Positions 32,201 to 56,200 of a stretch of DNA of 64,000 nt are shown here, piece after piece. How positions within the stretch are numbered: position 1 is the stretch's first letter; each line of letters starts with the position of its first letter. Source of the DNA: Nemertoderma westbladi (lineage: Eukaryota > Animalia > Xenacoelomorpha). The position numbers were made by a program, and so were the translations under genes. The stretch spans positions 37,310-101,309 of the forward strand of contig JAUCBJ010000757.1 of NCBI GenBank assembly GCA_032718475.1, written 5' to 3'. The notes under the pieces were generated by a model, which saw only the letters and a list, made by a program, of their open reading frames with translations, was not told where the DNA came from and searched no databases.

Positions 32201-35200
32201 TTGCTTAGCCTAGTTTAGAAGCCTTTGCCAATAAATAACTTATATTCCCATGGAAACTAGAATTCTCTGGAACTGTTGGTTTTACCTTTGAAAAAAGATT
32301 CAGTCCAGATTGTGGTTCAGATAACACATACCAAGTTTCAGAAAATATTGTAGTTTATGTCCAAATTACCGATTTTCTATCAAAATGCATCTGTTTGCAG
32401 TGGTTGTCATGGAAACTGAGAAATAGAACAATGTAATTCGGATGCAGAATAAGTCATATAAGGGGGGTAGGTCTTGGTCCCAAGTCATAATACTATTAAC
32501 TTGTGTTTCAAATTATCATTTTAGAAATGTTAACATCTGTTTAGTCTTGTTGCTATGGTAATTGGATTGTGTAATTAACCTCGAATGGATTGTATATGGA
32601 CCTTATAGATGAGTTGCAAAATCCCAAATTTATATTTATTACATTATTTTGCTACAAATAGAGTATTGAATTTAGACTTGAATGATATAGACTTTAATAA
32701 ACTCCAGTTACCATGGTAACAAGATATTTCTGGAATGTTTTCAGTTTCAGTAAAAGTTCCAACTAATTGTCCAGATAACACATTCCCAGTTTCGTAAAAT
32801 TTTATCGCGAAGTCTATGTCCAAATGAGTTATTTTTGTATAAAAACATCTGTTTTTAGCGGTTGTCATGGTAACTGCAAAATTAAACAATGAAATTTGGA
32901 CGCAGAATAAGTTATATAGTGGGGGTAGGGGTTGGTCCCAAGTCATAACACCTTAACCTTAGGCTTCAAATTAACATTTTATAAATTTTAACATCTGTTT
33001 AGCCCGGTTGCCAAGGTAACTGGATTTTATATTTAACCTCAATCGGCTCTGCTATGGACCTTATAGTTGAGTTGAGAAACCCCAAGTTTAAATCTATTAT
33101 AGTTTTCCTACAAATAGAGTTATAAATATTGACTTGAAATACATAGACTTTTTTCTAAGTCCGTTGCCATGGAAACCAGATTTTTCCTGGATATGAGACC
33201 CGGCCCAAAAGATGCGTCTCGCCGAGTAGTATATACATGCAAAATTTCAGGGTACTTTTAAAGGCTAGTTTTTTCACCTATCAAAAAACCCCAAATCTGC
33301 CTCACACAAGTAAAATAGCCCACTATGAATAGACCATCTCAGCTAAGGAAAATCTTTCTTAGCGAAAGTAGTTGATTTTCCTTAGCTTCGTGGAAATAAG
33401 ACATTAAATACTTACCGTGTACTGTCATTAAATGTTTGTATTCCATTTGTTGTCTATGGTCATGGTTCCTGAGCAACATTTTATGAACTTCATCTTTTTG
33501 TGATCGTAACTTCCTTAGTTCAGTGTAGACAAGATTCTGCACGATATAAAAAAAGCGTAATTAATAACTCTAACTAATAAGATACAAATTACAGAGATTT
33601 TTGTGGGGCGAGCGACGAAGTTGGCGGAAACTTAGCGAACTGACACTGATTAGAATTTGTAGATATTAAATAAGACCAAAAGTTGATAATTTTTAGCGAC
33701 TTTCAGACACCAGCAGTTCAACAGTCTCCTGCTAGAGGGCTATTATCGAAACAATAAATGTACTCCCATTTCTTTTATTTTAATCCGTTCAACGGTGAAA
33801 CGTGGCAGATTTGCACTACACCATTAACTGTGAAATTCAAATGAGACTCATCCGTCTGCAGTTCTCTAGTCTGCGGCTAGATGGCGAAATGTTCCAAAGT
33901 GAAATCCTTGTTCGATTCGGATATTATGATCAAGCTGAAATTTGGCAGATTACAGATATATACTTCTCGCACATATGTCTCTGCAGCAACATGCTTACCT
34001 CTTCGCATATGTGCCTGCAGCAACATATCTACCTCCTCGCATATGTGCCTGCAGCAACATACCTACCTCCTCGCATATGTGCCTGCAGCAACATACCTAC
34101 CTCCTCGCATATGTCTCTGCAGTAACATATCTACCTCCTCGCATATGTCTCTGCAGTAACATATCTACCCCCTCGCATATGTCTCTGCAGTAACATATCT
34201 CGCATATGTGCCTGCAGCAACATACCTACCTCCTCGCATATGTCTCTGCAGTAACATATCTACCTCCTCGCATATATATCTACAGTAACATATCTACCTC
34301 CTCGCATATGTGCCTGCAGCAACATGCTTACCTCCTCGCATATGTCTCTGCAATAACATATCTACCTCCTCGCATATGTGCCTGCAGTAACATGCTTACC
34401 CCCTCGCATAAATGTCTCTGCAGTAACATATCTACCTCCTCGCATATGTGCCTGCAGTAACATGCTTACCCCCTCGCATAAATGTCTCTACAGTAACATA
34501 TCTACCTCCTCGCATATGTGCCTGCAGCAACATGCTTACCTCCTCGCATATGTCTCTGCAGTAACATATCTACCTCCTCGCATATGTGCCTGCAGCAACA
34601 TGCTTACCTCCTCGCATATGTCTCTGCAGTAACATATCTACCTCCTCGCATATGTGCCTGCAGTAACATGCTTACCCCCTCGCATAAATGTATCTGCAGT
34701 AACATATCTGCCTCCTCGTATATTTCTCTGCAGCAACAATCCTACCTCCTCGCATATGTCTCTGCGGTAACATATCTACCTCCTCGCATATGTGCCTGCA
34801 GCAACATACCTACCTCCTCGCATATGTGCCTGCAGCAACATACCTACCTCCTCGCATATGTGCCTGCAGCAACATGCTTACCTCCTCGCATATGTGCCTG
34901 CAATAACATGCTTACCTCCTCGCATAAATGTCTCTGCAGTAACATATCTGCCTCCTCGCATATGTCTCTGCAGTACCATACCTACCTCCTCGCATATGTC
35001 TCTGCAGTAACATGCTTACCTCCTCGCATATGTGCCTGCAATAACATGCTTACCTCCTCGCATAAATGTCTCTGCAGTAACATATCTGCCTCCTCGCATA
35101 TGTCTCTGCAGTACCATACCTACCTCCTCGCATATGTCTCTGCAGTAACATGCTTACCTCCTCGCATATGTGCCTGCAATAACATGCTTACCTCCTCGCA

Positions 35201-53200: not shown

Positions 53201-56200
53201 CAAATCATTTAGTTTTTGAGTTTCTCTCGAAACTGTACTTTTTGGGGATCTACACTGGTGGGACAAATCATTTAGTTTTTGAGTTTCTCTCGAAACTGTA
53301 CTTTTTGGGGATCTACACTGGTGGGACAAATCATTTAGTTTTTGAGTTTCTCTCGAAACTGTACTTTTTGGGGATCTACACTGGTGGGACAAATCATTTA
53401 GTTTTTGAGTTTCTCTCGAAACTGTACTTTTTGGTGTTTGTTCTTCTCTCTCTATGGTCACGATATTATAAATAATTGGTCCATAGAAATCTTCACTTCA
53501 TTACATTGAATTTATTACGTAAAATGTATCAATTCACGTAGAATTTGCTTATTTGAATGGTATCCACTTTCTACGACAGAAAATAGAGATAGAGGCATTG
53601 TAACTATTTATGTTAATGGCCACAAAGAGTTAGGATGTAATTAACTGTATCAATTATATTTATTTAATAATATTAGTTTTGAAGACTTATTTGTTCTTGT
53701 TATTGGTACTTTACTACTGTATTATGGTACTAGAAGATCTCGAGTCATACTGAATGTTTTAGGTTTTAATTTTATACCAGTAGGCAAATATATTTGGTTC
53801 CCAAGATATAAATTTCTTAAAAGTTAAAGCTAAATTCTTACTTAGAGAAGATTATGCTAAACTGTATGGTAAACTGGAAAATAAAATAGTTAGCATGATA
53901 GAGAGGAGAGTATGCTAAACGGTATGGTAAACTGGAAAATAAAATAGTTAGCATGATAGAGAGAAGAGTATGCTAAACGGTATGGTAAACTGGAAAATAA
54001 AATAGTTAGCATGATAGAGAGAAGAGTATGCTAAACGGTATGGTAAACTGGAAAATAAAATAGTTAGCATGATAGAGAGGAGAGTATGCTAAACGGTATG
54101 GTAAACTGGAAAATAAAATAGTTAGCATGATAGAGAGAAGAGTATGCTAAACGGTATGGTAAACTGGAAAATAAAATAGTTAGCATGATAGAGAGGAGAG
54201 TATGCTAAACGGTATGGTAAACTGGAAAATAAAATAGTTAGCATGCTAGAGAGAAGAGTATGCTAAACGGTATGGTAAACTGGAAAATAAAATAGTTAGC
54301 ATGATAGAGAGAAGAGTATGCTAAACGGTATGGTAAACTGGAAAATAAAATAGTTAGCATGATAGAGAGAAGAGTATGCTAAACGGTATGGTAAACTGGA
54401 AAATAAAATAGTTAGTATGATAGAGAGAAGAGTATGCTAAACGGTATGGTAAACTGGAAAATAAAATAGTTAGCATGATAGAGAGAAGAGTATGCTAAAC
54501 GGTATGGTAAACTGGAAAATAAAATAGTTAGCATGATAGAGAGAAGAGTATGCTAAACGGTATGGTAAACTGGAAAATAAAATAGTTAGCATGATAGAGA
54601 GAGTGTTGAACTGGTCAAATGCATTAAAATTAGGTGCACTTGAGTAAAATAAACAGTATTATAGTGAAATAAACAGCATTATAGTGAAATAAACCGATGT
54701 GCATAACATACATCACTTTAAACCTAATTACAGCAGGAAATACTAATTTAATGTAGAATAAAGTGACTACAACTCACCTAAACTCCATATATAAAGTGAC
54801 TACAACTCACCTAAACTCCATATATCTGCTTTCTCTGAGTATTGGCCCTCATCCATTGCGAGTATAACTTCGGGGCTCATCCAATAGGGGGTGCCCACGA
54901 ACGAGTTGGCCGGGCAGCTGAGAGAGGCCGAACCAAAGTCGCCGAGTTTCACTGTTCCTCTATCAGTCAGTAGAATGTTACCTGGGAAAAACAGGGAGAT
55001 TAGTTACCTGGGAAATACGGGAAGATTAGTTACCAGGGAAATACGTGAAGATTAGTGACCTGGGAAATACGGGAAGATTACTTACCTGGGAAATACGGGA
55101 AGATTAGTTACCTGGGAAATACGGGAAGATTAGTTACCAGGGAAATACGGGAAGATTAGTTACCAGGGAAATACGTAGTGGATAAAAGGAATTGGCTGAA
55201 TAAATCAACCGTTAAATACTAATCAACAAAGCAAATCAATGGTTATTTATAAAGAAGAAATCCAAGAAAACAATATATTGTCTGCAACATACACAACCTC
55301 CACCTCCATGTATTATTATATGATTGTTTCACTTGTTTAGGTTGTAAAATAAGAATTGCCGATTATTGGTTAGATAAAAGGTTTAAGACACTTCACTACA
55401 AAGGATACAGAAGAATAAATACGAAAACTGTTTGAGGCAACTAATGATACCGGTAGCATTAAATATAAAGTTTGTTCCACGTAAACTTAATATATAAAGG
55501 AACAATAAGTATACTGTTGTTCGGAAGTTCGGATGTTCGCACTGTCGTGGGTGATGTGATGGTTGTGTGATGACAAGCACATTACTTACGGAACAGTAAT
55601 TCATAACTCGACTACGAAATAGGAAATTGTGGAAATAGGATTTATGACAGCTAATCTACCGTTATTGCCCCCCACTACGGCCCAGGTTACAATAAATATT
55701 CACGGTATATCAATCAATCGCTAATGGATGAGTTTCCTTGCAACGAGGGAAGTAAAATAAAATGCCCGAAGGGAAGAAAACAATTCCAAGATACTAAAAG
55801 ATTGCTTTGGAATCCATTGGAAACATTGCCTTAGGCAATAATGTGTTATGTTAATCGTTTTGTGATTTTGCGGTGGGTCAGTGGCGTTGTTGTACCTAGT
55901 GGTACATACCGGTTCAACAACGGTGCGTCAGTGGCGTTGTTGTACCTAGTGGTACATAGGCCTACCGGTACAACAACGGTGCGTCAGTGGCGTTGTTGTA
56001 CCTAGTGGTACATAGGCCTACCGGTTCAACAACAGTGCGTCAGTGGCGTTGTTGTACCTAGTGGTACATAGGCCTACCGGTTCAACAACGGTGCGTCAGT
56101 GGCGTTGTTGTACCTAGTGGTACATAGGCCTACCGGTTCAACAACGGTGCGTCAGTGGCGTTGTTGTACCTAGTGGTACATAGGCCTACCGGTTCAACAA

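Follow-up and report, generated by a model that had tools for sequence, protein, structure and literature searches.

Minisatellites spanning splice junctions of a TAO-kinase gene in Nemertoderma westbladi: probable mirage-type arrays

A stretch of 64,000 nucleotides from the genome of Nemertoderma westbladi (assembly GCA_032718475.1, contig JAUCBJ010000757.1, positions 37,310 to 101,309; the whole stretch is called the window hereafter) contains a TAO-kinase gene, TAOK, in which tandem arrays of at least five copies occupy 17,569 of the 33,815 bases spanned (52%). Using the program TRF, we identified 12 minisatellites (unit of at least 20 bp) and 2 microsatellites within the gene; when the repeat threshold was lowered to 30, no further minisatellite of this unit size was detected in the gene outside these arrays. 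Four of the 12 minisatellites span a splice junction, namely a 34-bp array at the donor of exon i, a 33-bp duplication at the donor of exon b, a 26-bp array at the acceptor of exon b and a degenerate 29-bp repeat at the donor of exon d. At the first three of these junctions, the spliced contigs of one sequencing run use the exon-proximal copy of the duplicated site. The arrays are probably 'mirage'-type minisatellites, which would have arisen from ordinary duplications and been tolerated since the exon-side site stays in use.

All four junction-spanning arrays are read on the minus strand, the strand of the gene. The 34-bp array (33972..40496; ~190 units of 33-36 bp) has a unit that corresponds to the terminal 34 nt of exon i (40463..40642) plus the donor GT, and 34 exonic nt lie inside the array. 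In 84 of the ~188 units that were counted, the 9-mer of the used donor is preserved exactly; the others carry variant GT donors (43, 15, 10, 6 and 6 units), GC (12 units) or TT (8 units). The second donor copy lies 36 nt downstream, in frame and ahead of the first stop, and its use would add a 12-residue extension. The read-through frame of exon i meets a stop at nt 141. Among the donor copies, those at +36 and +72 are the only ones that are in frame without a stop.

Exon b (54811..54981) is flanked by arrays on both sides. The 33-bp duplication (54758..54825, two copies) provides one extra copy of its donor, which is situated behind an in-frame stop. In the 26-bp array (54977..55175, 7.7 copies), the acceptor has been copied together with 5 exonic nt; CAG is kept in four of the seven upstream copies and the AG is lost in three, and three of the four intact upstream acceptors would shift the frame. 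In one 26-bp unit (55080-55088), located 104 nt before exon b, a consensus donor comes immediately after CAG; this site is similar to a recursive splice site, the motif of which is an AG with a donor adjoining it. The 29-bp repeat (50804..50881, 2.6 copies) represents the end of exon d (50865..51004) in three copies that have since decayed, and its extra copies contain no good donor. Use of most of the decoy sites in these arrays would be deleterious, as it would truncate the protein or shift its frame.

A fifth array, of 197 units of 31 bp (44214..50342, minus strand), ends 17 nt before exon e (43895..44196). A branch-point-like CTGAT is present in its last unit and in 81 of the 197 units overall, and the last unit is likely to hold the branch point of acceptor e. 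The flanking direct repeats are 3 nt for the 34-bp array, 2 nt for the 33-bp duplication and 12 nt for the 31-bp array. In all four spanning arrays, the units copy unspliced genomic exon-intron sequence and not exon-exon joins; therefore, an RNA template is not needed to explain them.

The remaining seven minisatellites are mid-intron, at 116-1,376 nt from any junction. They comprise a 31-bp array of 54 copies that lacks AG on the sense strand (56423..58100), a 56-bp array of 7.4 copies (55871..56276) whose donor-like 9-mer is also present outside the gene, a 20-bp array of 2.6 copies (54643..54694), a 58-bp array of 13 copies with an acceptor-like motif (53844..54602), a 42-bp array of 31 copies and a 63-bp array of 7 copies that have a common core (both within 51724..53434), and a hairpin-forming 22-bp array of 9 copies (26465..26662). 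The last 58-bp unit and the bases following it form a 32-nt pseudo-exon (53813-53844) with acceptor-like and donor-like ends. A 4-bp microsatellite at 59063-59093, which ends 19 nt before the acceptor of exon a, was left out of the junction counts.

A first-pass annotation, made from the letters alone, had described a gene-wide pattern of arrays nucleating on TAOK's own splice signals. All of the arrays that it named were recovered by TRF at about the coordinates it gave, and its degenerate triplication of an exon end and its duplicated donor correspond to the 29-bp and 33-bp repeats. Its ~190-fold amplified donor and 8-fold acceptor do span donor i and acceptor b, but the sites themselves are far from uniformly preserved, as the unit counts above demonstrate. 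The array that it placed 13 nt from an acceptor, with ~198 copies, is the 31-bp array near exon e, at a distance of 17 nt by TRF. The pattern as a whole was overstated: four arrays span junctions and a fifth lies close to one, but the seven others do not, and four of these (the 22-bp, 20-bp, 56-bp and 54-copy 31-bp arrays) had been omitted from the description. Two further candidates for splice-signal arrays had been included for the resemblance of their motifs; the 58-bp array lies 208 nt from the nearest junction with its motif unused in the spliced contig, and the 42-bp and 63-bp arrays lie 374 and 1,376 nt from any junction with a motif P of about 0.08.

Copy numbers of ~190 and 197 are given as assembled, and the run data consist of short-read contigs. 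An assembly artefact was considered as the source of the arrays. However, contigs from a second DNA sample (runs X2 and X3) pass from unique sequence into the 34-, 31-, 26- and 56-bp arrays, contain the tandem joint of the 58-bp array and cover the 33-bp repeat, so that six arrays recur in this sample; variation among units is also structured. We regard an artefact as highly improbable. Depth over the 33-bp repeat (54728-54821) relative to its surroundings is ~2-fold in run X1 and ~3-5-fold in X2 and X3; contig depth is not copy number, and the difference only hints at length polymorphism, with a higher copy number of the donor duplication in the second sample.

The gene model to which these positions refer lies on the minus strand from 59043 to 25229 and has 11 coding exons, named a-k, with GT-AG junctions placed. 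It encodes 869 residues without a stop and shows 45-46% identity to two TAO1-like kinases in tblastn searches. Exon a (58932..59043), the first exon located, encodes part of the kinase domain and is supported by tblastn and by a loose end of a spliced contig. Exon b matches Pkinase and is covered by a spliced contig, as are exons e, f (42095..42218), g (41189..41314), h (40812..40994) and i; exon c (51182..51349), like exon a, corresponds to a loose end of a spliced contig. Exons c and d and exon j (33416..33536) were located by tblastn, and the last coding exon, k (25229..26211), by protein matches. Among the best 120 of 235 protein matches of the last exon, TAO1-like kinases were found at 51-55% identity, all from fish except for one from a hemichordate. 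No 5' exons upstream of exon a were found within the 64-kb window, and none of 509 pattern matches in metagenome contigs was confirmed as an orthologous locus.

Evidence for splice-site use comes from run X4, which is on record as 'DNA?'. Since one of its contigs skips four predicted introns (e-f, f-g, g-h and h-i) at CT..AC ends, we take X4 to be an RNA run. This contig matches exactly as far as the end of exon i (40463), with 2,091 further letters lying elsewhere. At exon e, the match runs three bases into the intron, and the same bases end exon d, which fits the use of acceptor e. A second X4 contig covers 54810-54982 only, and the sequences that continue it on the two sides of exon b belong to exons c and a; exons a, b and c are thus joined directly. 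X4 depth in the bins beside the arrays is that of these two spliced contigs alone. No decoy site is used in the X4 spliced contigs, which contain only standard joins at exons b, e and i, with neither a new intron nor a new exon derived from a duplicated site. The 58-bp array was also considered as a used acceptor or a poison exon and was rejected, because exon b joins exon c directly and the 32-nt pseudo-exon is skipped.

These data also bear on the possibility that selection maintains the arrays because they adjust TAOK output, as decoys or as alternative splice sites. Three features would suit such a role: the in-frame second copy of donor i before the first stop, the acceptor-like and donor-like motifs 32 nt apart at the end of the 58-bp array (a possible poison exon), and the 26-bp unit in which an AG precedes a consensus donor (possible recursive splicing). 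However, the 12-residue extension, the poison exon and the recursive-splicing forms are all absent from the X4 contigs, although mature RNA would not reveal recursive use, and the decoy sites decay freely, many of the extra donor and acceptor copies having lost their signal. Selection for the arrays thus appears very unlikely.

The mirage-type explanation can be set out as follows. A stretch of 20-60 bp would be duplicated, likely via slippage or repair at short direct repeats, and the array would then grow, likely by unequal exchange. Wholly exonic duplications would mostly be purged by selection, and intronic ones would be free to accumulate. A duplication straddling a junction would restore an intact junction next to the exon and leave the extra copies within the intron, where a choice of site based on proximity passes them over; this last step is observed at three junctions of TAOK. 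Straddling arrays probably persist because the exon-side site is used. That 7 of the 12 minisatellites lie away from junctions indicates that this gene makes arrays everywhere.

The next question is whether arrays span junctions more often than chance would allow. For the null, each array was collapsed to one unit, wholly exonic positions were excluded and units of the observed lengths were placed randomly, which gave a collapsed target of 8.3-16.4 kb with 21 junctions. The first-pass argument that splice signals make up a tiny fraction of 34 kb used the wrong denominator, because 17.6 of the 33.8 kb consist of arrays. When a fragment of a long interspersed nuclear element (LINE) and the interspersed repeats of intron j-k were removed (8.3 kb), 1.47-1.89 spanning arrays were expected, with P from 0.048 to about 0.10; with interspersed repeats excluded and GC content matched, the observed 4 of 12 is compatible with chance (1.9 expected; P 0.10). 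Counting the five arrays that span a junction or lie within 20 nt of one gave P 0.06-0.08 with transposons removed. In binomial tests, P was 0.017-0.24 without the degenerate 29-bp case and 0.08-0.43 for arrays of at least seven copies, of which two of nine span a junction. The claim that several unrelated arrays independently copied TAOK's own junctions is supported (4 of 12 against 0.6-1.9 expected; P 0.003-0.11 over the nulls), and the excess of 2-6-fold is in the direction that had been proposed; it is modest, it depends on the null and it comes from one gene picked for the pattern.

Several points weigh against an origin from ordinary, tolerated duplications. With transposon sequence kept in the target (16.4 kb), only 0.63-0.72 spanning arrays are expected, a 5.6-6.3-fold excess with P 0.003-0.004, and the count of five within 20 nt reaches P 0.002. 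Both of the largest arrays (~190 and 197 units) touch a splice signal. Tolerance of arrays alone yields no excess over a uniform rate, and the proposed mechanism leaves any such excess unexplained, if it is real. Direct repeats as short as the 2-3 nt beside two of the arrays speak only weakly for slippage. Motif scores on the sense strand reached background P values of 0.004 (donor-like, 56-bp unit), 0.036 (acceptor-like, 58-bp unit) and 0.077 (acceptor-like, 42/63-bp units), although these come from 16 looks with a crude matrix. Finally, the spliced evidence consists of contigs of one run, from which rare isoforms are dropped and in which donor d is not directly covered.

One explanation for an excess is that duplications start more often at exon-intron boundaries for DNA-level reasons, such as the step in GC content, nucleosome placement or recombination and repair near exons, with no role of the spliceosome. 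It is consistent with a 2-6-fold excess under all four nulls and with the rise in expectation upon GC matching, the exons being 51% GC and the introns 34-37%; the occurrence of lancelet mirages at several loci is taken to suggest a more general phenomenon (PMC3087553). However, the data come from one gene chosen afterwards, the stricter nulls are not significant and most of the excess is left after GC matching. We consider a boundary bias of this type unlikely. In the literature searched, outside which most subscription journals lie, no study was found that tests genome-wide whether minisatellites are enriched at splice junctions.

The first-pass annotation had instead favoured a mutational process tied to co-transcriptional splicing (spliceosome pausing, R-loops or RNA-templated repair) that seeds or expands duplications at splice signals, or selection for splice-signal arrays. 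In addition to the four spanning arrays and the branch-point-like motif in the 31-bp array, such a process could account for the G-rich sense strands of the two donor arrays measured and for the finding that arrays of at least seven copies with a unit of at least 20 bp occur only inside the gene, none being present in the 25 kb downstream. The downstream region is, however, a poor control, because about half of it is a long terminal repeat (LTR) element. Moreover, the claimed sense-strand bias of splice motifs is absent: using crude matrices built from TAOK's own 10 donors and 11 acceptors, the sense strand scored higher in only three of the eight non-spanning units for donors and in four of the eight for acceptors. 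R-loops are expected with G-rich RNA. Of 10 arrays, 7 have a C-rich sense strand, and the two donor arrays measured are the only ones in which it is clearly G-rich; there is thus no general R-loop signature. The copying of unspliced sequence by the spanning units also argues against a process acting through spliced joins. With an excess that is modest and null-dependent, no strand bias, mostly C-rich sense strands and no decoy in the spliced contigs, neither splicing-coupled mutation nor selection for splice-signal arrays is supported here; there is no positive evidence for the former, which we judge to be distinctly unlikely. The broader proposal, that splice junctions and branch points are preferred starting points of tandem duplication in this lineage, that the arrays can reach ~200 copies and that splice-signal arrays are thereby a main route of intron expansion, via a boundary-linked mutational bias that is possibly coupled to splicing, also seems rather unlikely.

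Other candidate causes and signals were examined in the array units. Hairpin-driven expansion was rejected as a common cause, because only the 22-bp unit among 10 folds better than shuffled sequences (combined P over units, 0.11 when compared with shuffles and 0.35 when compared with intron windows). Units carried by transposons were not supported within the window either, as none of nine tested units matches elsewhere in it beyond 11-12 nt. The donor-like motif of the 56-bp array is likely a chance resemblance, being composed of short palindromes that are also present at other places in the window, and the acceptor-like score of the 58-bp unit is matched by ~3.6% of 58-nt background windows. 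The palindromes TAGGCCTA (11 occurrences, six of them within the 56-bp array) and TACCGGTA (14 occurrences) are frequent in the window and cluster near 11700-12150.

Transposable elements are found both within and around the gene. Intron e-f contains, at 42287-43761, an inverted copy (97.8% identity) of the 3' part (60890-62362) of a LINE, and an open reading frame of this LINE (929 aa, 59336-62125) encodes endonuclease and reverse transcriptase domains. If the 5' exons of TAOK lie beyond 62362, both copies would be present in one pre-mRNA and could pair. An LTR retrotransposon at 8777-21474, which we take to be of the Bel/Pao type, has 1.24-kb terminal repeats of 97.8% identity and an open reading frame of 1,674 codons with DUF1759; the frame ends at 17218, and no reverse transcriptase was detected in it. 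Intron j-k (28700-33394) consists mostly of transposon-like elements with inverted terminal motifs and degenerate internal repeats of ~460 bp and 1.2 kb. One element end lies ~21 nt from donor j, and these elements were not counted as minisatellites.

Minisatellites of this kind have been described in other animals. In lancelets, 'mirage' minisatellites were reported in Adh3 and in the globin genes BflGb6 and BflGb9 (PMC3087553), to which troponin C and PGBD5 were later added (PMC3902484); their origin was called unclear (PMC3087553). Similar to the lancelet mirages, 4 of the 12 TAOK arrays span an exon-intron boundary, the other 8 not doing so; many but not all units keep the AG or GT (84 of ~188 donors and four of seven upstream acceptors); and regular splicing is undisturbed at donor i and at both splice sites of exon b in the contigs of one run. 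The differences are the copy number, ~190 in TAOK against 3-6 for BflGb6 (PMC3087553), the presence of four spanning arrays in a single gene, half of which is minisatellite by span, and the host, which has no close relative among the protein matches listed (best 52-55%).

In humans, variable number tandem repeats (VNTRs) span donors in F7 intron 7 (37 bp), CBS intron 13, 6-16 intron 2, LMNB2 and PDGF, and the choice of the exon-side site has been dissected for F7 (PMC1557585). The TAOK 34-bp and 33-bp arrays resemble F7-type VNTRs in that the donor is spanned by their first unit and splicing takes place at the most upstream copy; in F7, LMNB2 and PDGF, identical donors follow and only the most upstream one is used (PMC1557585). 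In CBS and 6-16, splicing also takes place at two proximal pseudo-sites (PMC1557585), whereas none was seen in use in the TAOK contigs of run X4. The human VNTRs have 5-25 copies (PMC1557585), in contrast to the ~190 in TAOK, the TAOK 34-bp unit is almost wholly exonic, and TAOK also has acceptor-side arrays. In the Rogers model of intron gain by tandem duplication, a duplication across AG/GT creates spare splice sites and could found a new exon or intron (PMC3087553); the TAOK spliced contigs differ in showing neither at exons b, e and i.

With ~190 donor-bearing repeats and eight acceptor copies, of which only the exon-side ones were seen in use, TAOK offers a natural substrate for tests of splice-site choice, including those on the acceptor side. 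If a junction excess were to hold genome-wide, it would bear on the origin of mirages and link intron growth and gain to splice-site sequence, and a mirage-rich genome would make any junction bias measurable on that scale. Judging from the features compared, the four spanning arrays of TAOK appear to belong to the known mirage kind, from which they differ in scale and density.

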